Below, one piece after another: positions 110 through 61,071 of a DNA stretch of 64,000 bases. This DNA comes from a virus. The notes under the pieces were generated by a model, which made no database searches, had not been told where the DNA came from, and saw only the letters and a program-made list of their open reading frames with translations. The position numbers and the translations under genes were made by a program. Each line of letters opens with the position of its first letter. Within the stretch, counting starts at the first letter, position 1. The stretch lies in IMG/VR virus record IMGVR_UViG_3300035698_026482, positions 32,001 through 96,000 of that record, one strand, 5' to 3'.

Positions 110-115
110 TATCTT

Positions 116-2054: not shown

Positions 2055-2076
2055 GCATTACGTCTTATAGCTTAAA

Positions 2077-2733: not shown

Positions 2734-3953
2734 ACGTCGTCTCTAAGGTTTGTTGTATTAATCGGAAACTCAATATCGAAATTGTCAATCCCTGATCCCG
2801 CAGCCTCCATTAGTGGAACATACATCTTCTCGTCAGGATGTACATCAAGGATTAGCGCATCGTGCAACACAAAAAGAGGTTTCGTCTGGAGATCTTCTTT
2901 TTTAATATAGTCTACAATTTTGGTGAATCCCAAAAGAGCTACATCGACACCAGATGATTGCATGTACGAGTTATAAAGAATATGATCGACGTTTAGGCTT
3001 TCGACGCGACGCCCGTAACAATTGCGTATAAACCCATCATTTTCTTCATGTTCAGATCTCAACTTGTTCGTGAAGCCTGTCACATCAAAATGGTCACGAA
3101 GGCGATCAACTAGCCAATCTGCAGATCCGGGTTCAACGTGCTCGCTTAGCATTTTTGCGCCGCCACCGTAAATCGTTGCAAGTACAGCAAGTTTAGCAAT
3201 TTGACGAGGTACATCGCCCAGTACATGCGTTCCTATATCTGTATAAATGTCAGAAGCTGGCTTAAGACCTGCTTCATATGCAGCTATTCTTGCCTCAAGC
3301 GACATATAATCAAGCATGAGGATTTCACCATGTTCCCATCTTGATTGAATTACTTGACGATGGTCTTTTCGCAACGTTAAAATATTGGGTCCCTCGGATA
3401 CAACAAGACGACCCGTACGGGTACCGAGCTGATTATATTTGATTTGCTTGGCATATCCATCATCTAATGGACAAAACGATTTCAATGCTTCGGTGTTTCT
3501 ACTGGCAATATCAACATATTTCCACCATTTACCTTCATCGATTTTTGCCCTTACCAGAGATCCCAGGAGACGTTGTGAGGGCTCAAAGACAGAGACATAG
3601 TAACCTATATCATTACCGCTTAAAGCCCTCTTGACGTCACCAATGAGCTCGTGCAGTAGCTCACGATAGCGATCACCAGGGATAACGCGCCACCACGGTA
3701 CGTCTGCAGGCAATGCACCCAACACAGACATCGCTTTTATGTGAGGCTCATCAGGAAAAGTTGAATCAAGTCCAGATAAGCTCAGCAGCGAATCAATGCT
3801 TTTTGCGTATTCAGGACCAGCCCCAAGGATCCACGCGCCATCATCTGGAATTTTTGCCGATCGAAGCTTGCCTGTATCTAAATCCGCGACAACGTATTGT
3901 GGCGCGCCGACGGCTTGAGGCGATAGCCAAACTTCCATTCTCAAATGGTACAA
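2730..3953 (-). CDS. polA: compact family A DNA polymerase (polymerase domain)
   Basis: TRTGRL..EGPN, motif A DYMSLEAR, motif B RQIAK..IYG, NSYMQSSGVD, motif C LHDAL. Confidence 0.8.
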   Translation of the reverse strand: MYHLRMEVWLSPQAVGAPQYVVADLDTGKLRSAKIPDDGAWILGAGPEYAKSIDSLLSLSGLDSTFPDEPHIKAMSVLGALPADVPWWRVIPGDRYRELLHELIGDVKRALSGNDIGYYVSVFEPSQRLLGSLVRAKIDEGKWWKYVDIASRNTEALKSFCPLDDGYAKQIKYNQLGTRTGRLVVSEGPNILTLRKDHRQVIQSRWEHGEILMLDYMSLEARIAAYEAGLKPASDIYTDIGTHVLGDVPRQIAKLAVLATIYGGGAKMLSEHVEPGSADWLVDRLRDHFDVTGFTNKLRSEHEENDGFIRNCYGRRVESLNVDHILYNSYMQSSGVDVALLGFTKIVDYIKKEDLQTKPLFVLHDALILDVHPDEKMYVPLMEAAGSGIDNFDIEFPINTTNLRDDV

Positions 3954-3970
3954 AACATGTAGAACGTTTT

Positions 3971-6943
3971 TTAGCTTTTCATTAGTTCTGCCAATTCGGC
4001 GAGAGCGGCCTCAGTTCTATTGACTGAAGATTCATAGCGGCCGTATCCTTGAAGCGGTGTCATTTGAAACGCAGATTTGAACGCGCCTGGCTCAAGTGTA
4101 TGTTGCAGCGACGTTATTGCATACAAATTATCTAAATCGGTGCCTGTTTGCGCATCGACGAAGAACTGTTGTGTAAATGCCAAAAGAGGACAGCCCATTG
4201 TTGTTACACTCAGCTCTGCCGGCACTGTCTTTAGCGGTACACCACCTCGACCAGACCCTTCTGGTGTAATAGATCCCGCGCGGTCTGTTCGAAGCATGTT
4301 GACAGTAGACAATGCTGGGTTTTGCATTGACTGTAATCCTAGCTGCTCGACGGCAGTGTTTTGTGCGCCGTAAATAATATTTGGAGCTGTTGAGCGCACA
4401 AAATCCTTTACCGCCCGAGGGCCGCCAACAAGGCGATAATGTGTATAACGAGGGCCTTCTGGATCATTATCCGATGCTTCTGTTCCTGGCACACCTTCAA
4501 GTATACCAGTTGCAACGCCTGCCTTCACGTAAACGTTAGCCCTTAGCTGTTGCATACCCATATCTTTTTTGTCAACGCTATCTGTGAAACTAATCGCGCT
4601 TAAATCAGAATCTCTTGACGCCGCCAGCATTTGACCTTGTGTTTCATACGCCGTAGCAGCCTTGTCAAATACATGAATACGCAAAATTGTTTTTTCATCT
4701 GCAGTATGAAGATTTTGGTTTATTGATGCATCTAGCACACGGGCAGGCAGTGTTTCCATGTGGAGATCAATTTGAGGCATCTTAAAAACGCCATCTGATA
4801 CACCCATCTTGATTAACTTTTGTTCTGAATCAGTAGCCGCTCTTGCGTCTTTATCTTTGCCACGATACTTCGATGAATTTGGGCTAACTTTGCCCTCTTT
4901 ATCTTTTTTATAGATCGTCGACATACCATAGCTTATTGCAGCCATATTGTCAAGAAATGTTTGTGTGATGAAATTCATAAATTCACCAACTGCGATGCCT
5001 GCGCCACGACGCTCCATAACAAACGTGTCAAATTCTCTTCTTAATTCATCTTTGCGAATCAAAAATCCAGCAACAGACGTATTGCGAGCTGCGCCTGCTG
5101 ACGCATTTAGCGGATAGAATAATATCTGAATATCGTCGAACCTGAGCGTGTTCGCAAGCGGCGCACCCACAAATGCCATGATAACTTTGCCTAGCGAAAC
5201 ATATTCAGACTGCTCGTCTAAAATCGTCGAATACTCGCCGACGGTAAGATTTGATACGCTCTCAAAAAAATATGGATCAACTAGCGCGCCAAAATCAGGG
5301 TTCTCAATTGATTGAAATTTTTTGTTTATGACACCAGCAATCGAAGTGCGTAGTCGTTTAACAGCACTGCCTTCACCGGATTTTCCGCTACCGTATAAAT
5401 CCTTAAGCGTGGTCGACAATTCATCTGCATCATTTGATCCAAGACTTTCAAGGCGCTTAATCGTTGACGCAAGTTGCCGGCGTAATTTGGGATCTAAATC
5501 TGGACTGCCGTTTGTTGATTGCGCAGAGTCTAATACCTGGCTGCCAAGCACGCTCTTTGTACCTGCAGATCCGCCGCCTTTTTTCGAAGTTAAAGAATCT
5601 CTAAGATCTGTGACTCGTTCTTGCAATTCTGCAATATGATCAGCTGCTCTTTGTGTTTCCATATCGCTACCAATCATTGTTGAGCGATATTCATTGATGC
5701 CCTTCATTGCAAGTTCAAGCGTTATCTGAACTGATCCATCGTCTTGCAAATTAAAACTAGAGTTGACAATACCGTACTTTTCCTTGACGCGCATCGCGTT
5801 TAATAATGCGCCCCACGGATTTTGTAAATAATCATGAGGACTTTGGCTTGACATCGGGTGATGCCATCCGTACTCAAGCAGAAACTCAGTTTTTCCGTAT
5901 AAATCCGGCTTAACAAAGTCGGCGACCTCATGCAAGCGCGATCGATCATGTACAGTTAATGTAACCTGCGCAGTTTTAAAACTCATGAAGCCCGTTGTTG
6001 CCGCGACGTTGATATTAACACGTTCTAGTGACATCAACGGACGAAACGGATCTAGAATATCAGTGGGACGCAGCGAAGGTGCATTTATCTCCTGGAAATT
6101 GCCCGACGGGCCAACTGGTGCCATTGTTTGTGGCGCAAGAAATAGCTCCATACCTGCCACACCAGTCGCATCATTTCCTTCGTCAATAGTATCGTTTCCC
6201 GCAGACGCCATACTATGATCGGGAGTATCACCATTTATGGTTGCAGAACCTAAAACGAATTTGAGTGAAGAAGGTGCGCTCAGACGACCGTCGGCGCTTA
6301 AGGCGGATCGGCCAGTTTGCATTGTTAATTCAACGTAGGGAACTGCCCTGGAAAACTCAATCGCTGGAATAGCATTCATAAACAGCGTTAGCGCGGCAAC
6401 GTTTTTTGTGCCCGGTGATATGCCAATCGGATGAACCATCAATGAAGAGAGACCCGGTGTCAGCCGCGTAGGTTCTTTCGCATTGATAAATTCATCTGAA
6501 ATGTTTAGCATTTCATTTACGGACTCGACGCTGCCTACTTGTAGTTCTTTATTCGCAATATCTTTTGATGAGTTAATAGCTATTACGCGAAGAAGATTTT
6601 CTTCTGCCTGCGTTTTTTCATCACCCTCAAGACCCGTCATCTGTTCTTCAATATGTCGAACAAGATCCCGCGTTGTATATGCACCTTTTATCGTATCAAG
6701 TACAGCACGCTTAACAATATCATGAATTGCTCCCACGCCAAGGGCATCTTTATTTGCTTGCGCAGTTATAGGATCCAGCGCATTTTCAGAGCTGTCGACA
6801 ACAGATGCAATTAAATCATCGGGTGTACCAAGACTAAAAAATGGCGCTAGTCCAGTTCCGCCTTCTTGTCCTGGATTACCGCCAACGATAATGTTTAGGA
6901 TTGATTCGCGTGAATTTAAATCACCTGATTTACCTGATCCCAT
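3971..6943 (-). CDS. putative baseplate hub / late-control D-like protein
   Basis: Position after the LysM/gpX gene; C-terminal TTMGCPLL...YAITSLQHTLEPGAFKS pattern typical of contractile-tail hubs. Confidence 0.55.
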   Translation of the reverse strand: MGSGKSGDLNSRESILNIIVGGNPGQEGGTGLAPFFSLGTPDDLIASVVDSSENALDPITAQANKDALGVGAIHDIVKRAVLDTIKGAYTTRDLVRHIEEQMTGLEGDEKTQAEENLLRVIAINSSKDIANKELQVGSVESVNEMLNISDEFINAKEPTRLTPGLSSLMVHPIGISPGTKNVAALTLFMNAIPAIEFSRAVPYVELTMQTGRSALSADGRLSAPSSLKFVLGSATINGDTPDHSMASAGNDTIDEGNDATGVAGMELFLAPQTMAPVGPSGNFQEINAPSLRPTDILDPFRPLMSLERVNINVAATTGFMSFKTAQVTLTVHDRSRLHEVADFVKPDLYGKTEFLLEYGWHHPMSSQSPHDYLQNPWGALLNAMRVKEKYGIVNSSFNLQDDGSVQITLELAMKGINEYRSTMIGSDMETQRAADHIAELQERVTDLRDSLTSKKGGGSAGTKSVLGSQVLDSAQSTNGSPDLDPKLRRQLASTIKRLESLGSNDADELSTTLKDLYGSGKSGEGSAVKRLRTSIAGVINKKFQSIENPDFGALVDPYFFESVSNLTVGEYSTILDEQSEYVSLGKVIMAFVGAPLANTLRFDDIQILFYPLNASAGAARNTSVAGFLIRKDELRREFDTFVMERRGAGIAVGEFMNFITQTFLDNMAAISYGMSTIYKKDKEGKVSPNSSKYRGKDKDARAATDSEQKLIKMGVSDGVFKMPQIDLHMETLPARVLDASINQNLHTADEKTILRIHVFDKAATAYETQGQMLAASRDSDLSAISFTDSVDKKDMGMQQLRANVYVKAGVATGILEGVPGTEASDNDPEGPRYTHYRLVGGPRAVKDFVRSTAPNIIYGAQNTAVEQLGLQSMQNPALSTVNMLRTDRAGSITPEGSGRGGVPLKTVPAELSVTTMGCPLLAFTQQFFVDAQTGTDLDNLYAITSLQHTLEPGAFKSAFQMTPLQGYGRYESSVNRTEAALAELAELMKS

Positions 6944-10468: not shown

Positions 10469-13400
10469 TTATGGTCGTGCCTTAGGCGCGCCCTTTCCAC
10501 TAGATCCATCGATCTTAAACCAACGGCCCTTATGAATTTGTGCTGCAATATCCTCTGTGTCCATTTTAACGTCAAGCTTGATGTTAATATTGACTTTATC
10601 ATTGGTGATTGTAAACTTATCCTTGACGCCCATTGACTTTGCCAGCGCCTTAAGCTTAGGCTTGATGTCTACGGTTTGTATATTTGCCAATGATTTGTTA
10701 GTGATGTTGACTGATTCAACCATCGAACTAACAACGGTCGCAATACCTGTGTACTTGTCCTTCACCTTGTCCAGGATTTTATACACATTATCAACTGACA
10801 TTGAAGCATTTGACATGCTAGTAATTGCATCATCTCCGAACTTCGGTAACTCCATTATCGAAAATGCATCATTGATAATGATTAGGCGTCCGTTAACGCC
10901 TTCAATGCTCGCAACCGTTTCATCTGTAATCTGACCCGTGGTTTTACCAAAGTCTACAATTGTCGTGACAAATGATCCGTATGGTGCTAGCCAATCGTTG
11001 ATCACCTTAGCGTCAACTTGACCCCTAGCTAAGATCATTTTGCCGATCGTGTCAGTTGAGTTTCTTATGACCCTGAATAGGCCCTCAAGTTTGCCGAATG
11101 CCTCAGTCAGCGCTCCTGCATCCAGCGTCTTGGTTTCGGTAAGAATGCTATTGAGTGCCTTAGGCACCAATGCGAACCCGTTAATCGTGTCTGTCAACTT
11201 TTCGAACCCAACGACATCAGTCGTTTTAAACGCGTCCATAACAGTTTCCATATGCTTTTGAATTTTAAGTAATGCAGGCTTGAGCGTTGACTCGAATGTC
11301 GACTCCATCTCTTTAAGTTTTTCTGGATCGATAGCCGTAATTTCGTTAAGAAATCCTAGATCCTTAGGACCAACAGAATCCTTTACACCCTTCAACGTCG
11401 CATCATTTATTTCTGCTGTTATTTTGCCTACGCGCTCACCAATTATTTTAGGATCGATAAACGAACCACCCATTTCGGACTGCAGTTGCGCAGCGGCTTG
11501 CTTACGAAATTCTGCGCTTTTAGCGAGGGCATCGTCACCCCGGAGCTTTGAAAAATCTGTGCCGCTATCTTTTGCGAGCTTTGCAGCTCTAGCATTCATT
11601 AGATCATCTTGCTTGCGTTGCTGGCTTTGTAGCGCAATCTTTTCATCTTCAATCGCGATTGTTACGCCCTGCGCTCGTAGTTTATTAATTTCATTTAACG
11701 CGTTGATTTCGCCTGACTGCAATTTACCTGCCAGTTCGCGATTTGTGATTTTTGCAAACTGCTCTTCGTCGAGCGCCTTCATTCGCGCGTCGTGTTGTTG
11801 GGCAATTTCCTTATTAATCTTAGCTGTCTGACCAAAGAAAACGTCAAGCTTTTCAGCCATCCATCCTGAAATGTTGAAATATTTGTCGAGTAATAGACCT
11901 ATGCCTATTCCGCTGAGCGCAGCGGTTAAAATTCCGCCAATTAATGCAGCCCCCGTAGCGCCGACGGCAGCGGCACCGATACCGATGGCCGTCGTCGCAG
12001 CTTTTTTCAAGCCCGACACAAGTACAGACCCTAAGCGCTTAATCCAGCCAGGCTTAATGACGCCGCCATTCAGGCCTTCAGCTATACCTTTTGCGCCAGC
12101 GAGGCCAACGCTTTTCGTTGCATTAAATAATATTTTTGAGGCACCCTGCAGCGCTGATACTGATAGCCCTGCAATAATAGCTTTTGTTAGCCCAGCCAAT
12201 AAAATTTTCTCAGCGACCCATGGCCACCACTCGTTAAAGAAGGCTATCATTGGCGGCTTAATTTTTTCCCACGCAGTTTCAATCATGAGCATGAAAGCGC
12301 TGGTTAATTGCCCGATGACTGGGCCTGTAAATGCATCAATTATAGGTTGGAGGAATTCTTGTATTGGCCCAGCGGCATCAATTTTGGGTAATGCGCCATC
12401 CTTAATCCAGTTCGCTATGAACATGAACGTATCACGTAGACCCTCAAGTGCCATTTTCGCCATGCCGGCGATGATATTGACCATCGCCTTACCGAATGTC
12501 TTGAGACCATTTAGGAATTTTGAACCAGCGCCGGCCCTGGAATCGAAAAAATCGAAGAACTTCTCCTTTAATTTCGCCATTAGCGTTGGAAAAGAGTTGG
12601 CTGCATCATCTCCCCCAACATCTTTGAAGAATTGCTTGAAAATGCCTACGATACCTGATGTCAGTTCTTTGAACTTCTTGGTATCAAACATCTCGCGAAG
12701 GCCCTTAACCATATCGGCGACGCCAGGAAATGCCTCAACAAAGGTTCGTCCGAGCTCCATACCAGCGTGTCGTGTGATACGAAGGGCTTTTCTAATATCC
12801 CACATCAGTCCGCGGAAATCTTTCGACCATTTGACGCCGCGCTCAAATCCCTTGAAGAATTGGGTAAAGAAGCCACCTTGCATGCTACCGGTTTTAACAA
12901 GACGTTCAATTGAATCTGCAAGTTTACCCATGGCCTCTTGTTGAGTCATGGTCTTTTTCTGGTTATTGCCTTGCTGCTTCTCGATCTGGGACATGGACAT
13001 GCCCTGATTCTTCAACGAGAATGCCATTTTTGTTGCAGACTCATCAAGGCCGGTTTGCTGGGAAAGAAGCTTTAATTCTTGGCGTGAAAGCTTTTCTGCG
13101 TCAATGCCCGCCATCGCCATTGACTTGCGAAGCATATCAACGCGCTTCGTGGGATCCTGCTCACGCATCATCTCCATTGCATCAACATTTGCACCAAAGC
13201 TTTGGGCGAGCATTGCTGCACCACGCGCCGCGTCTTCAAAGTTATCATATGCGTCGATGACGCCGATGACATCCTTAATTTCAAGGCCCAACTTACGCAC
13301 GTATACTGACGCACGAGACATCTCGTGTGCAGTCATATTGCCAAAATGGGAAACATCCTCAGTCATCTCAGTAATGTCTCTCGCGATCACCTTGTGGCTC

Positions 13401-15979: not shown

Positions 15980-16678
15980 CTAGTTATTAGAATTAGGAAT
16001 ACGCTTTAGCGCAGTCGCAATTAGTTGCTTATGATTTTTGTCTTTGGTTTTTTCAACCTGCTGCTTAAAATAGTTTCTATTTTTATTAAACCAGCGTACA
16101 AATCGTTCATCGCCACGTAACGCGGTCTCAAGCCATTCAAGTTCGTCTTTTTTATCTTCTTTACTGAATTTCTTGCTTTTTCGATGGCGCTTGAATTGTT
16201 GCGCACCGCCTGCGATAAGAAGAAAGGGCAATGCAAGTATTGTCATCGATCCGTGAACAATGTTCTCTAGACCAGAATAAAGCTCTTCAGACGTATTAAT
16301 CCACTCTTCGCCAGCACGACTTGATTGACGCTCTTCCATATCATGTTTGATATGTTTAGAGATAGGCTCTAATTCATCCTGTAGCTCACCCATCAACATT
16401 TTTTGTAGATTTGCATCAGCCAAATCAATGTCGTGATCATTTGCATATGAAGCAAGTGATTGTTGCAGCTTTTTTAGTTTCTCACTCTTGACGAGCTTAA
16501 CAGCCTCTGCTGGATCCATCTTGAACGTTTGCTTGCAAATAGAAAGCAGTTGACCGATGATGCTATCCCATTCGTCAGATTTGACGATCTCTAAGGCATC
16601 TTCCTTAGATTCATTGATACGAAGACGAATTTCTTCGCGAATAATTTCGCGTGCTCTATGTTCAGTCAACTTTGTCAT
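15980..16678 (-). CDS. hypothetical protein with IIREE leader
   Basis: Probable start MTKLTEHRAREIIREEIRLRINE (track ORF begins at 16699). Confidence 0.7.
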   Translation of the reverse strand: MTKLTEHRAREIIREEIRLRINESKEDALEIVKSDEWDSIIGQLLSICKQTFKMDPAEAVKLVKSEKLKKLQQSLASYANDHDIDLADANLQKMLMGELQDELEPISKHIKHDMEERQSSRAGEEWINTSEELYSGLENIVHGSMTILALPFLLIAGGAQQFKRHRKSKKFSKEDKKDELEWLETALRGDERFVRWFNKNRNYFKQQVEKTKDKNHKQLIATALKRIPNSNN

Positions 16679-16865
16679 TCTTCTTTTCTTCCAATGCAAA
16701 ATGGGCCGCTGCAGACTTGCAATTACTAAACGCCATAAAAATGCGGCGTCGGGCCAATTTCAAATCATATTTCGTGTCGTCAGACGATTCACCAATAGCG
16801 TCGAGCTCTTGATTTGCACGAATTAGATGCTTGCACGCCTCTAAAAGGCGTATCCTCGGATCCAC
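16662..16865 (-). CDS. hypothetical protein
   Basis: 67-aa ORF, GTG start, overlaps the next gene. Confidence 0.45.
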   Translation of the reverse strand: MDPRIRLLEACKHLIRANQELDAIGESSDDTKYDLKLARRRIFMAFSNCKSAAAHFALEEKKNDKVD

Positions 16866-17741: not shown

Positions 17742-18689
17742 CTAGGGAACGTTGGGACTGGGCAGGTTATTGCACGCAGTATCAATAACCATTAACGCAT
17801 CTTCGAAAAACTGCTCATATGATGGTGCGCAGATGTCGCCGATAAACCCGTTTGTGAACATATTCGTGAACTGTGTAAGAATAGGCGCTTGTGCCATCCA
17901 CGTATTTTCACAGTCTGGCGAATCAGGTACACTGATTAACGACAAAATGACAACATTCTTTTCATCTTGTTCTAGATACAACATATGCTCAAACGAAATT
18001 GCGGCATTTTGCTGTGATGCAGCATCCTCATCGGTAATAATAACCACTACGAGTAATGCATCATCGCGATTAAAGCCTTCATTACATTGACCTGGTGAAT
18101 TTAAGAAGCCCTCTAGCGCTGCAATCGTTGCAGAAATAGGCTCTTCAAGACCACTGCCTGTGGCACCCACATTCGCTGCACATGTAAACGCAGAACTAAT
18201 ATCATCATCCTGCGTCATGTAATTATTACCTGCGACATATGGACCACATGTCGAGGTGCTTGTTGTTGTTACTAATGCACCAAGCTTTTGACATGGTCCA
18301 GGATTATCATCAAAATCGTCTGTGGTGACAACTCCAAGATGAATGCTTTCGAGTTCGACGATATAATTTTCAATCTGATTTGCAAATGCCGGAAATGACT
18401 CAATGAGCTTTTGTTGATTATCAAACATGGATCCAGAATTGTCGATCACAAAAAGAAAATCAACGTTCTTGCACGTTAATAGATTCCCGTCTGGATCAAC
18501 ATTCATGCCACCCGATCCATCGATATCAAGCTTGTCAGCAGGCGCATCGCCGCTTTCGCTTGCTTCGCTTCCAGACATAACATCTGGTTGTTTGCCAACG
18601 CTTAATGCAAATTCGGCATCGTTTGGATTACATGCAAGTGACAATGTAGCAATAATACCAAGCAACGCCGTTTTTAATTTTCTTATCAT
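17742..18689 (-). CDS. vWA-domain lipoprotein (Myxococcota-type)
   Basis: LSLAC lipobox-like site; DFLFVIDNSGSM (MIDAS DxSxS), HLGVVTTD, LLVVVIITDED. Confidence 0.75.
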   Translation of the reverse strand: MIRKLKTALLGIIATLSLACNPNDAEFALSVGKQPDVMSGSEASESGDAPADKLDIDGSGGMNVDPDGNLLTCKNVDFLFVIDNSGSMFDNQQKLIESFPAFANQIENYIVELESIHLGVVTTDDFDDNPGPCQKLGALVTTTSTSTCGPYVAGNNYMTQDDDISSAFTCAANVGATGSGLEEPISATIAALEGFLNSPGQCNEGFNRDDALLVVVIITDEDAASQQNAAISFEHMLYLEQDEKNVVILSLISVPDSPDCENTWMAQAPILTQFTNMFTNGFIGDICAPSYEQFFEDALMVIDTACNNLPSPNVP

Positions 18690-18891: not shown

Positions 18892-19077
18892 TTAAAGCTT
18901 ACGACTAGAAAATATCTGTTGACTTCCAAGTAACATACTTCGTAGTTTTTTATCATACCTGATATGGGGTGCAGCAAAATAGTCCGTGTATATAAGCTGA
19001 CCCTTTAATTTGTCAAGGAAGTAGCGAGAAAAATACATATCGTCTGGGCGAATATAGCTGCTAAATTGAGATGTCAT
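18892..19077 (-). CDS. FSSR[KR]-tail small protein 12 (61 aa)
   Basis: Probable start MTSQFSSYIRPDDMYF (track ORF extends to 19257); ends QIFSSRKL*. Confidence 0.7.
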   Translation of the reverse strand: MTSQFSSYIRPDDMYFSRYFLDKLKGQLIYTDYFAAPHIRYDKKLRSMLLGSQQIFSSRKL

Positions 19078-19078
19078 G

Positions 19079-19282
19079 TTATATTTTTCTGCTTGAAAAG
19101 CATGTTTCGCCGCTGTACCATGCATCGCCAAATGTTTCTCGCAAAAATTGACCTGGAAACATAACACGAAAATAGCAAAGGTTAAGCAGTGAACCAAACT
19201 CACCGCGCAAGGAACCGCTATGTTCATTAGAATAAATGTATAAATCGCCCGTAACAACAGGGATTTTGTTATGATTTATCAT
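19079..19282 (-). CDS. FSSR[KR]-tail small protein 11
   Basis: Probable start MINHNKIPVVTGDLYIYS; ends TCFSSRKI*. Confidence 0.7.
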   Translation of the reverse strand: MINHNKIPVVTGDLYIYSNEHSGSLRGEFGSLLNLCYFRVMFPGQFLRETFGDAWYSGETCFSSRKI

Positions 19283-19541
19283 TTGGCGGACTGGTAAGCA
19301 TTTCAACTAATGCATAAACTGCTTCCTCATTATGTTTAATTAATTCTGTTCTAAGATCGATTTCTGCCCTAATAACATCTCGCGGCGGCTCAGCAGCGAT
19401 TTCATACTGATAAGCTTGTTCGTTCATGCGATGAATAATATGTCTAAGCTTGGCTGTACGAACTAGTTCCCACTCCCACGTTGCGCGACGCCCATGATGA
19501 CTAATATATTTCACCCACGTATATTTTTCTGTTTTTATCAT
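19269..19541 (-). CDS. hypothetical helical protein inside the FSSR array, lacks the motif
   Basis: 90-aa ORF coupled to both neighbours. Confidence 0.6.
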   Translation of the reverse strand: MIKTEKYTWVKYISHHGRRATWEWELVRTAKLRHIIHRMNEQAYQYEIAAEPPRDVIRAEIDLRTELIKHNEEAVYALVEMLTSPPNDKS

Positions 19542-19544
19542 TTG

Positions 19545-19712
19545 CTAAATCTTTCTTGAGATAAATCTGCGCCATAATGAATAGCCAACATCTGCATAGC
19601 TTAAAATCGTGTTCGGTGGGGCGGTTCTAAATTCAATCTCATGATGCTTCTGTTCATTATAAAACGGCAAGAAAAAGTAGAAATAATGATCTGCAGGCCT
19701 AATTTTCATCAT
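19545..19712 (-). CDS. FSSR[KR]-tail small protein 10 (55 aa, FISRK variant, not in ORF track)
   Basis: Hand-translated MMKIRPADHYFYFFLPFYNEQKHHEIEFRTAPPNTILSYADVGYSLWRRFISRKI*; ATGA overlap with the upstream ORF. Confidence 0.7.
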   Translation of the reverse strand: MMKIRPADHYFYFFLPFYNEQKHHEIEFRTAPPNTILSYADVGYSLWRRFISRKI

Positions 19713-19900
19713 GTGCGCCTTGAACTAAAAATCCATTTGCGCAACATCATTCCGTCAGATGCCAGGTTTTCACCATAACTCGCTCCCTGTGACATAATAT
19801 CGCCGAAATAAGCTTCATCACGCATGTATGAAACATGCATTCCGCTCGTCTGTATCCAATGTATCAAAAAGAAACATGCATCGTTTTTATATGGCCTCAT
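19709..19900 (-). CDS. FSSR[KR]-tail small protein 9
   Basis: Ends WIFSSRRT*; ATGA overlaps on both sides. Confidence 0.7.
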   Translation of the reverse strand: MRPYKNDACFFLIHWIQTSGMHVSYMRDEAYFGDIMSQGASYGENLASDGMMLRKWIFSSRRT

Positions 19901-20106
19901 ATCGCTAGTTTTCTTGAGCTAAAAACGTACCCAACTGAGAAGAGGTCGTATTTGCAGGCGCCCGTATAGTAGTATGTTCGGTATCTTGCAATTACGTTAT
20001 CAAGTATATCTTGGTAAAAGATAGCGTCATCATAATCCATCCATTCTCTTAGCGACATGTTTCGTTTTGGATTGAGAAGCTGTTTGTATAATTCATTCGC
20101 GCTCAT
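19897..20106 (-). CDS. FSSR[KR]-tail small protein 8
   Basis: Ends YVFSSRKLAI*. Confidence 0.7.
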   Translation of the reverse strand: MSANELYKQLLNPKRNMSLREWMDYDDAIFYQDILDNVIARYRTYYYTGACKYDLFSVGYVFSSRKLAI

Positions 20107-20275
20107 AAATTCGTCTTGATGAAAACACGTCAGATGATATTAGCGTCGACAAATCAGCCCATTGGGTAACATTGCCAGCAGTCCACGTGCGGCGGATTCC
20201 GCCAATATAATCAATTCCCGCTGCAAGCATCACGAAATCGTTATGCTTAATCAATGTGTAATTCATTTGCATCAT
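20093..20275 (-). CDS. FSSR[KR]-tail small protein 7
   Basis: Ends DVFSSRRIYERE*. Confidence 0.7.
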   Translation of the reverse strand: MMQMNYTLIKHNDFVMLAAGIDYIGGIRRTWTAGNVTQWADLSTLISSDVFSSRRIYERE

Positions 20276-20499
20276 CTATTCACCCTTCGTGATGAGAAAT
20301 AATATGCCACTAATTCATGATATCCCGTACGCAAGACAAAATTAGTACCGTATTTATATTCGTACAGTAGCGGCGCATCACCAAAAAAAGCAATCGCGTC
20401 ATCGTCGGATATCAATTTTTCGACACGACATTTTTCACAGCCACGAGTCATTATTCCTGACATTACATGGATTGAATAGTCATCCTTGTATGCAATCAT
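20272..20499 (-). CDS. FSSR[KR]-tail small protein 6
   Basis: Ends YYFSSRRVNR*. Confidence 0.7.
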   Translation of the reverse strand: MIAYKDDYSIHVMSGIMTRGCEKCRVEKLISDDDAIAFFGDAPLLYEYKYGTNFVLRTGYHELVAYYFSSRRVNR

Positions 20500-20702
20500 T
20501 ATTCGGCTTTTGTTATTATTTTTCGTGACGAGAAAACGTCAAGCATGTGCTCATACGTCCGTAGTCCGAACTTGCCTACGTAATCAGCCTGGAAATAATC
20601 GATAACTGTTCCGACAAAGTAATTGTCGGGATCTGTTACGTCAAGCTTTTCATTGCCATGAAAATAGATGTACAAATCATTAAGTTCTACGGGTACCCGC
20701 AT
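20499..20702 (-). CDS. FSSR[KR]-tail small protein 5
   Basis: Probable start MRVPVELNDLYIYF (track ORF begins at 20750); ends DVFSSRKIITKAE*. Confidence 0.7.
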   Translation of the reverse strand: MRVPVELNDLYIYFHGNEKLDVTDPDNYFVGTVIDYFQADYVGKFGLRTYEHMLDVFSSRKIITKAE

Positions 20703-20874
20703 TTGATACCCTTCGCGATGAGAAAACGTAGCAGTAATTGTTGTGTGCATAATGTGATGCGGATCTAGCGGATCTCGTGTATGTTATATGGGTGGTATAT
20801 ACGTTGCACACGTCAGCGAACTGTGGAGGGCTATACCGATACACACACGCTTTATCGCCAGTTCTGGAATTCAT
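20680..20874 (-). CDS. FSSR[KR]-tail small protein 4
   Basis: Ends YVFSSRRVSNAGTRRT*. Confidence 0.65.
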   Translation of the reverse strand: MNSRTGDKACVYRYSPPQFADVCNVYTTHITYTRSARSASHYAHNNYCYVFSSRRVSNAGTRRT

Positions 20875-21086
20875 GTTGTGCTAATCTTTCGTGACGAGAA
20901 AGTTTCAATGTGAAAACCCGAAGGCGTCCAGGCACTTAATTGTGGATTGCGTAAGGTCATCGAGTCCTTTGTTAACGGATAATATGAATACCTTGTCCTG
21001 CCGGGTCTTGATGGACATCGCCAGTAGACGATTATTCCATACGTCGGGGTAACCCTGAACACGTGATCAAGTGACGTTGACAGCAT
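20871..21086 (-). CDS. FSSR[KR]-tail small protein 3
   Basis: Ends ETFSSRKISTT*. Confidence 0.7.
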   Translation of the reverse strand: MLSTSLDHVFRVTPTYGIIVYWRCPSRPGRTRYSYYPLTKDSMTLRNPQLSAWTPSGFHIETFSSRKISTT

Positions 21087-21088
21087 TG

Positions 21089-21277
21089 TTATCTATTCGC
21101 TTTCCGTGATGAGAAAATATATTCGTCCGTGTACGAACGTTGAACGCTGCGGGACGTAGCATATGCGATATAAGCACCACCGTTCAGCGTGGTAGCAATT
21201 GAACGATCAAGTACACGGAAATTTGAATCTTCGCGTGACCAGGCTATAAAATAGTGATCGTCGAAAACTATAGGCAT
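21089..21277 (-). CDS. FSSR[KR]-tail small protein 2
   Basis: MPIVFDDHYFIAW...; ends YIFSSRKANR*. Confidence 0.7.
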   Translation of the reverse strand: MPIVFDDHYFIAWSREDSNFRVLDRSIATTLNGGAYIAYATSRSVQRSYTDEYIFSSRKANR

Positions 21278-22869
21278 GCATTCCCTTGTAATTCGAATCG
21301 TGCATTAGGACAGCCATAAATTTTAACAAGACCTCGAGCTGCGGCAACAGCCGCTTGCGACAATCCTTGTGTCTTATCTGCAGTAACGTATAATCGCGGA
21401 TATCTGTTTACAAAATCTGTCCACCAAAATCTAGAGCTTGTTAGACCGGTGTAGGTAAATCCAATATTACTATACCCGACACCTAAGCCTATTCGACGAT
21501 CTGCATAAGTCATAATAGATTTTGTATTATCGATATCGTTTCTTGCGTGCTTTAAAAGCTTTGACAATCCGCCGATAACGTATAGATTAAGTGACGTAGC
21601 ATATCGCGCTATTTCCAAGAAATTCTTTTTGTGCGTCTTTGAAATCGGTGTTCGTAACGAAAGCGCAGCAACAATTTCATTGTCATGAATTAAGGCATAT
21701 GCAGCCTTCGCGTTTCCAGTATCACCATCTAAGTGCGTCGAATTAAAAAATGTCTGGCGTTGGGCGCGCGTAAGTTTCTCGATTCGACATTTTCGTGCAT
21801 AAATTTTTGTGCAATCAACCTTTAGACGATTTCTGATCATCGATTTAACAATCTGTTGTTTGTCACGCCACTCGTCTTCAAAGATATGAAACAGGGGTAA
21901 GTCAATTGCTTCACACAACTGCGTTTTATCCCAATGCGCATCATTATTCGTTAATATTTCTTCAGAATGCCAATATAACCCATTAAATTCAATTGCTAAC
22001 GTATTCGGCACAAGTATATCGATTTCTTTAGGTGCTATTGTATTTCTATCGTTTAATATAGCGTCAGGCCTGAGGGCTTTTACGAAGTCATATACTTCCC
22101 TCTCTGATTTCCACTTTGGCATGCATGAAGGGCAATACTGGCGCCGAAGCATGTATTTGTATGTCCGCTCAAATGTTGTATCACATGTCGTGCATTTAAA
22201 TGTCGCTCGTGAATTCACGCCTGCGTATTCGTCAATTGACGAATATAATTCGAATCCTTTCATTTCAGCACATCGTTCAGCAACGACGTTTTTATCAAGC
22301 ATTTGCGACGCGCTTATTTTCGCTGCGCCAATGATCAGTCCGGGTGTATCGTCTTTTGTCTTATTACGATTCCACGGGACAGTTGTTCCATCAGCAAAAT
22401 TAGCCAGTTTTGTTTCTGACATTTGCTTTATTGATGCGCTCGTATCTTTTGTTAGTCCATTTTGCCATGGAACTAGTCTGCCTTCTGCGTATCCGCGCTG
22501 CAATGTCTCTGCAGTTTTCTTTGCGATGGCCCTAACTCTGCTATCTTGCTTTGTTAAACCCTTATTCCACGAGCCATGTATTTTACGATGCTTTGCCGAT
22601 GCTAGCGTCGCTGCTTTTCGAGCCTTGTCGCTGAATCCATTATGACCAACAACAAACTTTGAAAATGCACGATTATCATCTGTCCAGCGTTGTGCCAATG
22701 ATACAGTTTCGCCGCAGCCGCATGAACATGTGGGAACCTCACCATTATGCAACATATCTGCGAAAATTTTCGACCTAGATACATCGCGATGCGCTTTCGT
22801 GATATGACAGGCCATACCGCGCCGCGTTTTTACGATTGCGCAAATAGGGCACTTGTAATCGACTGGCAT
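21268..22869 (-). mobile_element. free-standing Hef-like homing endonuclease gene (Zn finger, W-x-K-G-L-T-K repeats, PD-(D/E)xK-type nuclease, GNAT/Mom-like C-terminus)
   Basis: CPIC..H..H; SWNKGLTK/PWQNGLTK/PWNRNKTK; EIDILVP..AIEFNGLYWH; HIFEDEW; TYADRRIGLGVGY..IGF. Confidence 0.7.
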
Positions 22870-22917
22870 CTTACATATTATACATATGTTAGATCAATAT
22901 GTTTGGTCCAGCCTGCA

Positions 22918-23151
22918 CTATTGTTTAGCAATGCCGAGACGACGGGATGAGAAAACATCGTATTCCCAATATCCCAGTATGCCTCCCGATGTTGAATATT
23001 CATGCGCGGTTGGCCACGTATCAATGAAATGGTCAAGTGGGAGGGCCCAGTGGTTATAATTCGTTAATATTAACATCCTGGATTGTGCCCAATCAGATAA
23101 AGTCACGTCGTCGAGGGCACCAATATGCGTTGCATTCTGCTTTAGTATCAT
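22918..23151 (-). CDS. FSSR[KR]-tail small protein 1
   Basis: Probable ATG 23151 (the track GTG start at 23232 lies upstream of a terminator); ends DVFSSRRLGIAKQ*. Confidence 0.65.
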   Translation of the reverse strand: MILKQNATHIGALDDVTLSDWAQSRMLILTNYNHWALPLDHFIDTWPTAHEYSTSGGILGYWEYDVFSSRRLGIAKQ

Positions 23152-23205: not shown

Positions 23206-23225
23206 AATGTTCAGTCTTGATACTG

Positions 23226-23245
23226 CAGCCACTTATAAGTGGCTG
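23226..23245. repeat. perfect 20-bp palindrome
   Basis: CAGCCACTTA|TAAGTGGCTG. Confidence 0.9.
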
Positions 23246-23254
23246 TTATTGTTA

Positions 23255-23743
23255 TTAGTACTGCTGGATGGCGTTGTCAAAGCGTAGGGTCAAGGCGATT
23301 TCACAGGCGTCTGGGGCGCTGTAGTCAAGGTCATTGAAGTTTGCGTCCGTGATGAACACACCTTTCAGATCCCATAGCTGCACAACAGTACCGATAGGGT
23401 CAAGCATCTTAATCTGGCAATCACGCTTGTAAAAATCGGCGTAGCCAGCGCGCCCCGAAACAGACTCATGGTGAACGCGAATCCACTCCATGACCTGTTG
23501 CGCGCCAGACGGTGCGATCGGATCATAAAGAGTAACCGACATTGGTTGAAACTCGTTCTTACCTGCAAGGTAACGAATGCTATTAAGCCAATCTATTTTC
23601 ACTTCGCCTTGAGCCATTTGCGGGCGCGCAGCTGTCTTCATAAGATATGCGTCAATACCTTCAATGTTAAAAAGCCATCGATGTTTGCGCAGTGGCTCAA
23701 ACCGATTGGGGATCATCGTTGCGACATCTAATGTTTCTGCCAT
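23255..23743 (-). CDS. gp19: tail tube protein (T4 gp19-like)
   Basis: Start MAETLDVATMIPNRFEPLRKHRW (track ORF extends to 23923); LYDPIAPSGAQQVMEW, WDLKGVFIT, LTLRFD. Confidence 0.85.
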   Translation of the reverse strand: MAETLDVATMIPNRFEPLRKHRWLFNIEGIDAYLMKTAARPQMAQGEVKIDWLNSIRYLAGKNEFQPMSVTLYDPIAPSGAQQVMEWIRVHHESVSGRAGYADFYKRDCQIKMLDPIGTVVQLWDLKGVFITDANFNDLDYSAPDACEIALTLRFDNAIQQY

Positions 23744-23751
23744 GATGCATA

Positions 23752-23758
23752 TAACTAT
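23752..23758 (-). promoter_or_regulatory. putative late promoter motif ATAGTTA
   Basis: 8 nt before the tube ATG; same motif family before most late genes. Confidence 0.5.
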
Positions 23759-23816
23759 TAAATCACCGCAACTCTCAAAGTACAATTTGTTGCATAAGCT
23801 ATATATTATAGTTAGT

Positions 23817-25442
23817 ATGCGCTCAAGTGGCACGAAAAATAATATAGCTGTTTGCCCGTTCTGCGAGTACTCATCAGGTCTATTATCGAAGTTCGAACAA
23901 CATTTATCTCGTGAACATGACACGTCATCAAAGGAATGTTGGGATCAACAAAACGGCGGGCCGGTCAAATGTGGATGTGGGTGTGACAAAGAAACAAAAT
24001 GGTTAAACTGGCACAAGGGATATTCAGAATCTTTTAAGGGTCACTGGAAGCGTGGCAAAACAAAAGAAAGTGATGCGCGTGTTGCTAGCGCCGCTGCGGG
24101 TATCAAAAAAGGCTTTGATGAAGGTAGGATTCCGTGGTCAAAGGGACTAACCAAGAAAACAGATGATCGTATTGCGAAAATGGCAAAGGCGACCAGCGAT
24201 GGTCTTAAGCGTGCATACGCAACAAAACGTCTAAAATCATGGTCAAAGGGTAAGTCTAGGGGCACACACCCCAGTCTGCAAAAAACCTCTACGACCCTAA
24301 GAAAAACATATGCAAATGGAGATCGTGTGCCTTGGGCAAAGGGTCTAACAAAAGATACAGACGATAGGATCGCAGCTCTCGCATCAAGAAACAGGCTTGA
24401 CATTGATAATATTAAGCAACGCATTGAGACGCCAGGTCTATATCAGCTATTAACAAAGCTTGATGATTATGAATCAACGTCAGACATTGTAGACATAATT
24501 TGTACAACGTGTAATTCGGTCGCGTCGAATAAAATTGGTGTGTTCATTCATGGAAATTCGCAACCAAATTGTCAAACGTGTGCACCAACAGGATCATCTA
24601 TTCCTGAACGTGAGCTAGCTGACTTTATCGAATTCGAATTGGGCGTGTCAATTTCTAGAAATGATCAGACCGTTATTAATCCCTACGAACTAGATGTGTA
24701 TGTGTCACAAAGTAACTTCGCCATTGAGTTCAACGGACTATATTGGCATAATTCAGCAAATAAACCAAGCAAAACGACGCATTCGCATAAGACAAAGCTT
24801 TGTAATCTTAGGGGAATAAAGCTGTTACACGTATTCGGTGATGAGTGGCGAGATCGTACAGAAATTGTTAAGTCTATTATTCGTGCAAAATTAGGTGCAG
24901 GCATGTCGCGCATCGACGCAAGAAAGTGTGTAATTCGCGATGTTATGTTACCCGAGCGTAGGGTGTTCTTTAACGATAATCATATTGACGGCGATACCAA
25001 TGCATCATTTGCGCTTGGTCTTTATCACGGTGATGTACTTGTACAATGTATTTCTATTCGCCGACCCATGCAACAAAAATATAGAACAGCGAAGCTACTT
25101 GAAAACGCCCGCAGTTGCTCTATACTGAACACATATGTTCGAGGGGGATTAAGCCGTTTAAGCAAAGTCGCATTGACTCGCGCCAAGGGTATGGGATACA
25201 GCGGACTTATGACCTATACCGACGAACGTCTAGGTAATGATATGGCGTATCAAAGTTCAGGATGGCAGTATACCGATAGAACTAACGATGTACGTTTCTG
25301 GTGGACAGACAATACACGTAGATATCAACGTATGCAATTTAAGGCTGATAAAAAAAGAGGCCTCTCTGAACGTCAAGTTGCAGAAGAGGCCGGTGTTGTG
25401 AAGATCTACGGTTGTTATAACAAGATCTATGTGATTAGATAA
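23817..25442 (+). mobile_element. free-standing Hef-like homing endonuclease gene, inverted orientation
   Basis: Probable start MRSSGTK; CPFC..H, four W-x-K-G-(L/K)-(T/S) repeats, ELDVYV..AIEFNGLYWH, HVFGDEW, TYTDERLG; the only long plus-strand gene. Confidence 0.75.
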
Positions 25443-25446: not shown

Positions 25447-25710
25447 TTATCCGATTAGCCATTGTCTTCCGTCCCAATGCAACGAAGGGTATCTTGGGTG
25501 GCGACCTTCGTAGCCAGTCTGTGTGATTATCCAATCATAAACATCGGGCTCTTCAGAGTCCCATCCCCGCATGTTAATCAGCTCGTTCCAAGCGCGTTTA
25601 TCGTGCTGAAGAATGTCGTAGTCATCTTCACGAGCGGTCGGCGGATCGTGAATCTCCTTAAGAAGCTCTTCGCGAATAATACGTCGTATTACTGATTTTT
25701 TGGTTCGCAT
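25447..25710 (-). CDS. IIREE-leader acidic protein (putative head-internal)
   Basis: MRTKKSVIRRIIREELLKE. Confidence 0.7.
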   Translation of the reverse strand: MRTKKSVIRRIIREELLKEIHDPPTAREDDYDILQHDKRAWNELINMRGWDSEEPDVYDWIITQTGYEGRHPRYPSLHWDGRQWLIG

Positions 25711-26566: not shown

Positions 26567-27984
26567 TCGCCGTCGACAGACATTTCACCCACTTGAGGCC
26601 TGATCTTTAGACCAACATTTCCGTAGTTTTTTGCGGCCTTTACAATATCTTTAAATGCGTACGGGATTGCCTTAATATCTACTTCATCAAAAGGCTGCCC
26701 GTCAGGACGTCTAATGTTAACAGGCACCTGGACATACAGGTCATATTCAGTTCCTTCCATCCATTGATCAGGGGTGATCCATGGGCGGTTAGAAAGATCC
26801 TCCCCATGAGGTGCATCCTCAGGCTGCCAGCGATCGCGGCGCGATCGACCTGCCCAGATGTTGTCCATCATATACTCGCCCGTTTCGGGATCTTTGTCTG
26901 CAATCAATTCTAAAAGATCGACCTCATCATGGCGATAACCTTCGTGCACACGCTCCCACATATTTCCATCAGGTGACCACACGTCAGGTTCCGCATATTC
27001 GTCATAGTCATCCTCGAATCGAGGGTCGACATACAGATCTTCGTTATTTTCAATGGCTGCAATTGCATCGCCAACAGACATGCCTGCGTGAACCATTTCA
27101 ATTTCATCATCATCCGCATCTAGAATATAGATGTCGTTTTGAAGTTCGTCTGTTTCATTGTAGCCGCCAAGAAAGTTAATGGCATCATCATAAGACATTT
27201 CGTCTGGGTTATTAATGATGCCCTCGTGAACACGACCTTCTGTACGTCGATTGAATTTTAATTCACGTGGACGACCTCGTTGACCCATACTTGAGCCTCT
27301 AGGTAATTTTTCTGCTGGGTGAACTTCTGTGTCCCTAGGCAAACCCTTACTTCGTTTGTAATCCTGAAACTCGTATGTTTCTATATCTGCAAGGTGTTTT
27401 TCATCAGGATCTTCACGCTCAAATGCTGCGTCTTGGCTTGCGTATAGCTCATCCAGCGCTGCTTCAATTTCTTCGATTGGCGCGTCCTTATAATCATGCC
27501 AAATCCATGTAGGCTTAACGCCTTCCAATTCTTTGTATGTGTCAGAATAGATGCTAAGCAATTCGCTTCTGCGTTCATCATCTGATGGCACCTCTGTCGC
27601 GGGCGACATTTGCATTTCTTCAAGACCAGTTGTCTTGTTTGTCAATTTATCCGGCGTTTGATTGATTTCAACGTGACCTGATTCATTTAACGTCTGTTGT
27701 TGAAAATCCTTTGTCTCGTCGAGATATTCACCATCGACTAATTCTTGATGAACAACGCCTCTAATATTAGCGTCAGTTGAATCAAGCGACGCAGTATCCT
27801 GTCCACGACCAACGCTAAGCGTATCTGCAACAACGTTCAAAACAAAATCTATAACGGCAGCAGAATCGTCGCCCTGCGTTGCTTGTGGCATTACATCCCA
27901 CATCGCAAGCTCGTTTTGCTCCAGCCATTTAAGATATTTCTTTACAGCCCCGCGGACTGCACCTGCATCAACTTCTGTCTTCAA
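26551..27984 (-). CDS. large, very acidic protein with repeated xxE sites
   Basis: 477 aa, D/E-rich; YLDE, TLNE, RVHE (twice). Confidence 0.75.
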   Translation of the reverse strand: MKTEVDAGAVRGAVKKYLKWLEQNELAMWDVMPQATQGDDSAAVIDFVLNVVADTLSVGRGQDTASLDSTDANIRGVVHQELVDGEYLDETKDFQQQTLNESGHVEINQTPDKLTNKTTGLEEMQMSPATEVPSDDERRSELLSIYSDTYKELEGVKPTWIWHDYKDAPIEEIEAALDELYASQDAAFEREDPDEKHLADIETYEFQDYKRSKGLPRDTEVHPAEKLPRGSSMGQRGRPRELKFNRRTEGRVHEGIINNPDEMSYDDAINFLGGYNETDELQNDIYILDADDDEIEMVHAGMSVGDAIAAIENNEDLYVDPRFEDDYDEYAEPDVWSPDGNMWERVHEGYRHDEVDLLELIADKDPETGEYMMDNIWAGRSRRDRWQPEDAPHGEDLSNRPWITPDQWMEGTEYDLYVQVPVNIRRPDGQPFDEVDIKAIPYAFKDIVKAAKNYGNVGLKIRPQVGEMSVDGEWEFA

Positions 27985-28697
27985 TTGATATGATCCCTTG
28001 CATATTCCACTTGTTTCATTAGATCACGAACTTTTTTAATCAGATCTTCAAGCATTTTATGCGATTGCTTAAAATTTACGTCCTGAGCTTCGAATTGCGC
28101 TGATCCCAGCTTAGTCTCAGCCTTGCCTAGTGATACCCAAACATTATCAAGCTGACCACGAATGGCATTATACTTGCTAATTCGCTGTTGTTTGAATTCT
28201 GCGTTGTCTTCGTCAAGCTCTTTTATCGTGCTTTCTTCGTCAGGCAAATCGTCATAACGAGTGTCCATACGCCCGGGTGTCTTAGACATTGCGTTACGTG
28301 ACGCAGCATACCCGCCTGACATCGTTTCTGTGACAGTGTTATTAGCGCGAAACTTTTTTAGGCTTGCCGCTGCTTCTTCGATAGGCTCGTCAACTTCGAA
28401 TTGTGCCTCGTAATCGCGATCATAATCTTCATCCTCTTTATCAAAGTCTGTAAGCATGTCGACATCGGGCTTTTCGCCTATAGGCAATTCATGAAATTCA
28501 TATGTTGCATCGCCATATGACAGCTCAGTATCATCAGCGTAACGATCTGCTTCATCTTCTGAATCAAACGGGCCAATGCCTTCTGCCGTGCCGTTATCAC
28601 TGATAAGAATTATCCACCATTGCATTCCTGCAATGCCTTCATGAAGCATGATTTCTTCACGAATTATTTGTTGAAGGCTTTTATTTGTAGCGTTCAT
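27981..28697 (-). CDS. IIREE-leader acidic protein
   Basis: MNATNKSLQQIIREEIMLHE. Confidence 0.75.
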   Translation of the reverse strand: MNATNKSLQQIIREEIMLHEGIAGMQWWIILISDNGTAEGIGPFDSEDEADRYADDTELSYGDATYEFHELPIGEKPDVDMLTDFDKEDEDYDRDYEAQFEVDEPIEEAAASLKKFRANNTVTETMSGGYAASRNAMSKTPGRMDTRYDDLPDEESTIKELDEDNAEFKQQRISKYNAIRGQLDNVWVSLGKAETKLGSAQFEAQDVNFKQSHKMLEDLIKKVRDLMKQVEYARDHIN

Positions 28698-29149: not shown

Positions 29150-29488
29150 CTATCCGTAAAAGCCTTCGCCGTGGCCTTGGGGCATATCATCGCCGTCATC
29201 GGCGCCCCTACTATCAGCTAGATCAAGGTAAAACTCTTCAGCACCAGACATAATACCTCTCATCGAATCAGCGTCGCCAGACATTTCGTCGGCCATATAA
29301 TCGACGTACCATTTAATCATAAAATCAGGCCCATCAGATTGATATGCATCACTGGGCATTTCACCTGAGTCATATAGTTGCTGCAAGTTTTCCATATGCC
29401 AATTTTCATCTGGTGTACTTGCGCTACCGATTTCGCGAAGAAGCTCTTCCCGAATGATTTTACGAATTAATGTTTCTGTGAGTTTCAT
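29150..29488 (-). CDS. IIREE-leader acidic protein
   Basis: MKLTETLIRKIIREELLRE. Confidence 0.75.
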   Translation of the reverse strand: MKLTETLIRKIIREELLREIGSASTPDENWHMENLQQLYDSGEMPSDAYQSDGPDFMIKWYVDYMADEMSGDADSMRGIMSGAEEFYLDLADSRGADDGDDMPQGHGEGFYG

Positions 29489-60527: not shown

Positions 60528-60794
60528 TTATATCATTCCTAGCGCTTGAAGAACTGTCAGCACGTGTTCGTCTGTAGGCCTTTTGCCTTCATGCCATCTT
60601 GCTTCGGCAATCGCACCTCTAACAAACATATCTTTGCACCATGTGCAACAAGACCACGAATTAAAGGTCGCAAGATCTTCACGTGTTCCCATAACAAATT
60701 TGCACACAGGACAAGCTATCGGAATGCATTCACCGACATTCGCTGGTGTAACAACGATATATCCGTCGCATTTTTCAATTTTACGGTCTGTCAT
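60528..60794 (-). CDS. small Zn-binding hypothetical protein
   Basis: CPVC...CCTWC. Confidence 0.6.
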   Translation of the reverse strand: MTDRKIEKCDGYIVVTPANVGECIPIACPVCKFVMGTREDLATFNSWSCCTWCKDMFVRGAIAEARWHEGKRPTDEHVLTVLQALGMI

Positions 60795-61071
60795 GTGTCA
60801 AACTTCTACTGCTAAATGCGCAAGCATAAAAAATATTGGTGTCGTAGTTTCGTCTAAATGAATGGCGCCCCATTTTATCAGGATTATGATATCGAAAGCA
60901 CCATCTAAGTGAGTCAACATTACGCGAAGTAAGTGCCTTAATTTTCTTCATGTGTCCGAAAAATCCAAGCGTATTCTGCGAAGATTCAACGTATGCATAA
61001 TCTTTTTCCCGCACCCACATAAGTGGCCATGGACGTGCGCTCGGGTGAGGCGCATTTCTTGCTTCAAACAT
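60781..61071 (-). CDS. small protein with FSSRS near the C-terminus (possible orphan member of the FSSR family)
   Basis: Ends CAFSSRSLTHDRP*; overlaps both neighbours. Confidence 0.5.
   Translation of the reverse strand: MFEARNAPHPSARPWPLMWVREKDYAYVESSQNTLGFFGHMKKIKALTSRNVDSLRWCFRYHNPDKMGRHSFRRNYDTNIFYACAFSSRSLTHDRP

Follow-up and report, generated by a model that had tools for sequence, protein, structure and literature searches.

Among jumbo phages, phage G and coliphage 121Q carry more than 30 tandem genes that were called "very similar genes" (Hua et al. 2017, PMC5646251), and phage G encodes about 35 zinc-ribbon copies with a recognisable shared domain (Iyer et al. 2021, PMC7824862). 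Here we describe small tandem genes, encoding proteins with a C-terminal F-S-S-R-[K/R] motif, in a 64,000-nucleotide stretch of viral DNA (the window). The window corresponds to positions 32001-96000 of the 182,840-bp virus record IMGVR_UViG_3300035698_026482, estimated to be 53% complete; "genome" coordinates refer to the whole record. The genes are paralogs of one lineage-specific family that has expanded through tandem duplication of whole genes, giving arrays with coupled translation. The family is real and undescribed, and what makes it unusual is that only two short ends persist from lineage to lineage, everything in between being replaced.

An earlier note on this DNA had reported 12 open reading frames (ORFs) ending in F-[S/I]-S-R-[K/R] between 18892 and 23151. 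All 12 were found, all on the minus strand, and the ORF at 19545-19712 that had been claimed as a member was present with its motif. The 12 motif ORFs observed in the region compared with a mean of 0.003 and a maximum of 1 in 1000 dinucleotide shuffles, and 27 strict motif matches were found genome-wide where 0.2 were expected. The genes of this array, referred to as array B, are packed head-to-tail with ATGA or TAATG overlaps or gaps of a few bases. The array is not continuous, being broken by two non-member ORFs of 90 and 533 amino acids (aa; Table 1). Likely starts were corrected to 20702 instead of 20750 and to 19077 instead of 19257. The 12 genes were all real members, but the count fell short: a 13th copy lies elsewhere in the window and about 30 more lie outside it. 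The genome total is approximately 43 members, organised as arrays of 17 (array A), 12 (array B) and 9 (array C) and five single copies found among nucleotide, packaging and sugar-modification genes.

The C-terminal consensus was h-F-S-S-R-[K/R/P]-[V/I/L] (h, hydrophobic), with a consensus core of F-S-S-R-[K/R]-V. As had been proposed, this motif is constrained as peptide and not as DNA, with both serine codon families in use and third positions free. The second serine was encoded by TCN in 32 and by AGY in 10 of 42 genome members, in which the third positions of serine and arginine codons carried 0.05-0.24 bit. All six serine and all six arginine codons were used among 67 rows from six sources, one row being a chance match. 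In an alignment of 62 members with a mean column identity of 11%, two columns at opposite ends were invariant: that of an Asp at about residue 7 and that of the motif's second Ser, the latter partly by definition because the search patterns demanded it. Even so, the arrays consist almost entirely of members, with 17 in succession in array A and 12 of the 13 small ORFs in array B, and one solo copy carries F-S-N-R.

The description of the remainder of each protein as barely alignable held for the middle, but it had overlooked a second conserved block at the N-terminus. This anchor, M-[K/R]-[I/V/L]-x-x-[G/D/E]-D-x-h-h, was present in 53 of 62 members against 4 of 41 other small ORFs of the genome, a count affected by the choice of some member starts with the pattern in mind. 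The Asp itself was found in 62/62 members, preceded by Gly (19), Asp (15) or Glu (7) and accompanied by hydrophobic residues at -4, +2 and +3. The idea of one C-terminal tag on unrelated payloads was therefore abandoned: since members also share the N-terminal Asp, they are paralogs with two fixed ends and not unrelated payloads with one tail.

The segment between the anchors ranged from 28 to 67 residues (median 45, a 2.4-fold spread), in proteins of 44-100 aa, and middles could be aligned only in two recent duplicate pairs. Their composition departed from that of random DNA: Tyr made up 8.7% (2.9x) and Trp 3.2% (2.6x), compared with 2.9% and 1.2% in large phage proteins and with 4.1% and 1.5% expected from shuffled array DNA. 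His was enriched 1.6x, and Lys, Val and Leu were depleted. Variable binding surfaces, such as those of antibodies and of the targets of diversity-generating retroelements, are typically enriched in Tyr and Trp. No member contained a transmembrane-like stretch; 13 had an acidic, 17 a neutral and 32 a basic isoelectric point.

The two ends appear to change together. In array C, Arg was replaced by Ala or Cys in 9/9 genes and, by our reading, the Asp was missing at the anchor position in 8/9, a joint loss that counts as one evolutionary event; only two copies there carried F-S-S-C. In addition, a Glu before the Asp was paired with a non-basic residue after the Arg (R-[P/L/S]) in 6/7 members against 8/55 of the others (p 0.0003), an association spotted by eye and drawn from two independent sources.

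Duplication was traced in array A, where a 99-nucleotide (nt) unit is repeated at 97% identity and a 184-nt unit, beginning at the motif of the preceding gene, at 79%. An older duplicate pair had a synonymous divergence (dS) of 0.51 and a non-synonymous divergence (dN) of 0.21, with dN/dS 0.41. Seven single-nucleotide polymorphisms (SNPs) distinguished three samples of SRR17165146-8: four synonymous, two non-synonymous and one in a putative start. The dN/dS value and the SNP pattern indicated that the genes are under purifying selection yet fast-evolving. Exactly two residues follow the Val in 38 of 67 copies, an ending with an ATGA-type overlap that allows a duplicated unit to fit in with translation coupling kept. 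The R-[K/R]-V codons often read AAGGTG or AGGGTG about 8 nt ahead of the next ATG, and in array A part of this stretch doubles as the Shine-Dalgarno (SD) sequence of the next gene, whereas many array-B junctions have none. In the syntenic relative G016 the tail tube gene adjoins the baseplate gene, and in another relative, G004, a single nuclease-type gene lies between them. This gene order indicated that array B is a lineage-specific insertion.

Conservation of the motif outside this phage had been set beforehand as a test, and members were found in seven further metagenome sources. A paired-motif scan of metagenomes identified an independent run on contig L119 with six complete members and one partial, and a profile including these members was used to reach the others. 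In SRR17165146-8, a clpS gene is followed directly by 22 members within 4.7 kb and has one further motif on its upstream side; GCA_900162855.1 contained three members and ERZ27251120 two; single members amid small ORFs were found in three more ENA samples. When compared by tblastx, L119 and four other source contigs gave no match to this genome, indicating that each lineage holds its own set. The family was not found in G004 and G016, had no match in 28 related, incomplete phage records, and formed no motif array within 10 kb of the tail tube gene in 80 relatives sharing about 70% identity in that gene. Six motif DNA patterns searched in IMG/VR and one in GTDB genomes returned no array, a weak absence given that the patterns were codon-limited.

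The earlier note recognised no named family, and this held true: Pfam and PHROG scans, run with members singly and as alignments, gave nothing at cut-off, and no Pfam or PHROG family was matched by more than one member. PDB sequence profiles returned chance matches only, 1.84 billion representatives searched by profile yielded nothing beyond the query member and two false matches to repetitive sequences, and the ESM Atlas returned unnamed viral clusters only, at 0.86 or less. The motif strings were absent from the literature searched. AlphaFold with the family alignment gave block values of the predicted local distance difference test (pLDDT) of 72 and 76 at the ends and 51 in the middle, and the first model, of low confidence, placed strands at both anchors. 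Of the fold searches with the low-confidence models, one reached a best Z of 2.8 and the next had no match at Z >= 2; BFVD likewise gave nothing with E below 1. This decides for neither a new nor a known fold.

We favour the reading, which seems to us evenly poised between right and wrong, that the two ends form a clasp showing a variable binding loop and that the arrays are a tandem-expanded host-interaction repertoire. The N- and C-terminal ends would pair as beta-strands, closing the chain head-to-tail; the anchor Asp would probably be held by the Ser or Arg of the motif, and the middle would be displayed as a variable binding surface. Individual copies could then be soluble proteins that bind or inhibit host proteins or bind small ligands, directed at defence or takeover targets, the set differing between phages. 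We infer an anti-defence or host-takeover role from size, copy number and composition only. Among the options raised previously, a conserved strand of a diversified effector fold came closest to this reading.

Several points weigh against the clasp. Two strands of 10 residues offer little to hold a fold together on their own, and a site of binding or modification would explain the strictly conserved polar Ser-Ser-Arg no worse than a structural role. Both models were of low confidence (mean pLDDT 56 and 65, predicted template modelling score 0.34) and gave no direct view of paired ends. A systematic covariation scan of 110 pairs gave a best p of 0.0035, which fails multiple-test correction. Finally, the contigs from other sources are short and lack a phage hallmark gene, so that their viral origin is only inferred.

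The strongest rival is a modified form of the earlier idea of a constant tag read by one partner, and we consider it unlikely but substantial. Both anchors together would dock, by beta-strand addition, onto a single machine of phage or host shared by all members, and the middle would recruit different cargo. The Ser, Ser, Arg and Asp are near-invariant across eight sources while the middle has no conserved core position; the M-K-x-G-D-L-V family of small barrels found in related phages, by contrast, retains core positions. However, no gene travels with the arrays, whose neighbours differ at every site: members have unrelated neighbours in regions for replication, tail, packaging and sugar modification, and in another source they lie on either side of clpS. 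In no further source is clpS adjacent to members, and a search of this incomplete genome did not find it. ClpP and the nucleotidyltransferase gene upstream of array A also occur in relatives without the family. The joint loss of Arg and, mostly, of Asp in array C is less easily explained by a single conserved partner. In a related and rather doubtful scheme, a clasp of about 20 residues from both ends docks all members on one shared machine or lets members co-assemble, and the unrelated Tyr/Trp-rich inserts, dozens to a genome, each capture a different host target. Such an antibody- or adaptor-like library, itself a doubtful proposition, would be diversified by duplication and not by reverse transcriptase.

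The use of the R-[K/R]-V codons as SD-like sequences, the frequent ending two residues past Val and an only moderately low dN/dS would also fit duplicated, near-neutral genes retained to fill the capsid, the motif being a relic of descent or of the ribosome-binding site of the next gene. We regard this as improbable: F-S-S-R was kept with free synonymous change while the middles diverged beyond alignment, the array-B junctions often lack an SD sequence, the composition is not that of random DNA and the strain SNPs are mostly synonymous.

Ser-Ser-Arg could instead be a site modified by a phage enzyme, through nucleotidylation or phosphorylation. The Ser is invariant, and immediately upstream of array A is a gene resembling Pol-beta-type nucleotidyltransferases. 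A 43%-identical homolog of that enzyme is nevertheless encoded by G016, which is without the family, no nucleotidyltransferase neighbour was seen beside arrays B, C or other sources in the DNA examined, and the weak matches of the enzyme are to Pol-beta families and not to DUF1814. We regard a modification site as improbable.

The C-terminal ClpX signals ssrA (LAA) and MuA (RRKKAI) sit at the extreme end of the protein (PMC5143411). The family ends resemble the MuA tail in having a basic and then a hydrophobic residue near the C-terminus, and the previous statement that the phage encodes ClpP was confirmed. Unlike these signals, the motif is not terminal; it is followed by 0-13 free residues ending in 15 different terminal residues (6/62 acidic, Glu or Asp), and it is coupled to an N-terminal anchor whose Asp a degron leaves unexplained. 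Array C lacks the basic pair, and ClpP is also found in relatives without the family. A ClpX degron or protease decoy, which the earlier note had raised, fits poorly and is highly improbable.

The position of array B between tail tube and baseplate genes would suit interchangeable virion decoration or internal proteins. We hold this to be scarcely probable, because 30 of the 43 members lie beyond the window, for the most part around dnaE or amid sugar-modification genes, because the family is missing from relatives that have the same virion genes, and because members lack the N-terminal I-I-R-E-E motif common to several putative head-associated proteins. Six copies of 17-18-nt repeats at 74-94% identity and the duplication unit beginning at the motif might point to an element of DNA or RNA, such as a recombination site, a promoter or a hairpin, that mimics a peptide motif. 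This is largely refuted by the codon data, since TCN and AGY alternate with perfect coupling of first and second positions, third positions are free and every copy is in frame.

Table 1. Members, arrays and other features discussed in the text (window coordinates unless the genome or a relative is named)
Feature	Position	Strand	Evidence or remark
vWA-like lipoprotein gene	17742..18689	-	downstream flank of array B; library scan, no relatives found
Member, 61 aa, last of array B	18892..19077	-	motif
Member, 67 aa	19079..19282	-	motif
Non-member ORF within array B, 90 aa	19269..19541	-	ORF check; without motif
Member, 55 aa	19545..19712	-	motif, FISR variant
Member, 63 aa	19709..19900	-	motif
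Member, 69 aa	19897..20106	-	motif
Member, 60 aa	20093..20275	-	motif
Member, 75 aa	20272..20499	-	motif
Member, 67 aa from ATG 20702 (83 aa from 20750)	20499..20702	-	motif; identical copy on ENA contig L083
Member, 64 aa	20680..20874	-	motif
Member, 71 aa	20871..21086	-	motif
Member, 62 aa	21089..21277	-	motif; SD-like AAGGGA upstream
Zn-finger/Mom-like gene, 533 aa, non-member inside array B	21268..22869	-	match to Pfam Mom (E 4.6e-5) that stayed below cut-off; other paralogs in the genome
Member, 77 aa, first of array B, directly after tail tube gene	22918..23151	-	motif FSSRRL; Asp anchor in IGALDDVTL
Tail tube gene	23255..23743	-	upstream flank of array B
Solo member, 79-96 aa, just after SbcC-like gene	60781..61071	-	E 1.3e-5 with family profile (profile includes this copy)
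Array C, 9 genes	genome 840-2489		F-[S/V/I]-S-[A/C]
Array A, 17 genes	genome 12224-15596		runs into helix-turn-helix gene and split dnaE
Zn-finger/nuclease repeats	21268-22869 (-), 23664-25442 (+), 41322-43109 (-); genome 5625-7247, 7957-9576, 100749-102449		
M-K-x-G-D-L-V expansion sites	G004 1-5700 and 264000-278100 (L254, L267); G016 215600-222700		

Further observations were made around the members. At genome 12473-12625, within array A, an ORF has an intact Asp anchor and the FSSR end is found in the next fragment (12406-12534) in another frame, probably a frameshifted member. The starts of array A (genome 15590) and of the second block of array C (genome 2040) show a -10-like hexamer (TACAAT and TATAAT) a few bases before the first ATG and no SD sequence, a leaderless-like arrangement. 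A promoter scan of array B gave 21 hits against 14.7 +/- 3.9, not clearly above chance. On contig L226 (2-487), the motif is read in frame within a longer ORF whose continuation encodes a hydrophobic, membrane-like protein immediately ahead of clpS, possibly a read-through or fusion.

The genome encodes a T4-like major head protein, portal, terminase, head protease, tail tube and baseplate protein. The closest capsid matches were 35-49% identical, no cultured phage was close, and the best tail-tube relatives, in IMG/VR, were about 70% identical. A perfect 20-nt palindrome with a terminator-like score on the plus strand lies at 23225-23246, just past the tail tube stop and ahead of array B. Conserved operons contain insertions of repeated Zn-finger/nuclease genes, of which at least some have a Mom-like C-terminal region and one lies within array B. 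The dnaE gene is split over several ORFs (genome 2482-11777) that match one gene in G004 and G016, and of the ORFs at 52093-57150 and 57193-60087, that of the portal contains insertions of HNH type, and that of the terminase is likewise greatly enlarged. Two lipoprotein-like genes were noted, at 17742-18689 (vWA-like, with no relative in the collections searched) and at genome 168474-168905; their style recalls myxobacterial lipoproteins, but the search for relatives gave no lead to the host. Several otherwise unrelated proteins begin with M-K-L-T-x-x-x-L-R-x-I-I-R-E-E (15980-16681, 25447-25710, 27981-28697, 29150-29488 and neighbours, minus strand; genome 105497-105742). Six such starts occur in G004 and three in G016, with no Pfam match for those tested, and the start may be a capsid-targeting or prohead-protease signal.

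This phage devotes 4.6% of its contig to a family without a catalogued relative, and other lineages hold large, non-overlapping sets. If the 20-residue terminal clasp tolerates 28-67 arbitrary residues, it would be a natural minimal display scaffold, and the family would offer a defined, cheaply synthesised gene set in which to screen for new activities against defence or in host takeover. A single docking partner for all copies would instead make them a new kind of phage adaptor system. Either outcome would explain what some of the small ORFs of jumbo phages do.

The M-K-x-G-D-L-V family resembles the present one in size, array layout and a first strand with a Gly-Asp or Asp-Asp turn. Its SH3/KOW-like paralogs number about 27 in G004, with weak Pfam matches to SH3_2 and SH3_CYT4 (E 0.02-0.08), and two or three such genes were also seen in this genome near 165500-170600. 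When G004 was searched with the family profile, 7 of the 12 best matches, all non-significant, were M-K-x-G-D-L-V proteins. Unlike them, the members described here lack the G-I-h-L and K-V-L core strands, and the M-K-x-G-D-L-V proteins have no counterpart to F-S-S-R. Alignment of the two families by hhalign gave 4.7% probability over 13 N-terminal columns only, and no conserved middle columns corresponding to internal barrel strands 2-4 were found in the 62-member alignment. Because the first strand is shared but the core is not, we did not file the family as SH3/KOW; descent from such a barrel is plausible, and the family may derive from the M-K-x-G-D-L-V expansions of this clade.

Like the tandem expansions of jumbo phages, the family consists of dozens of small, tandem-duplicated, lineage-restricted paralogs of unknown function in a large T4-like phage. 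A large tailed genome, small homologs in tandem, duplication and lineage restriction, the features that define such expansions, were all found here. Unlike the families described previously (PMC5646251, PMC7824862), the copies share only two terminal anchors of about 10 residues each, on either side of an unalignable middle, and match nothing in the catalogues.

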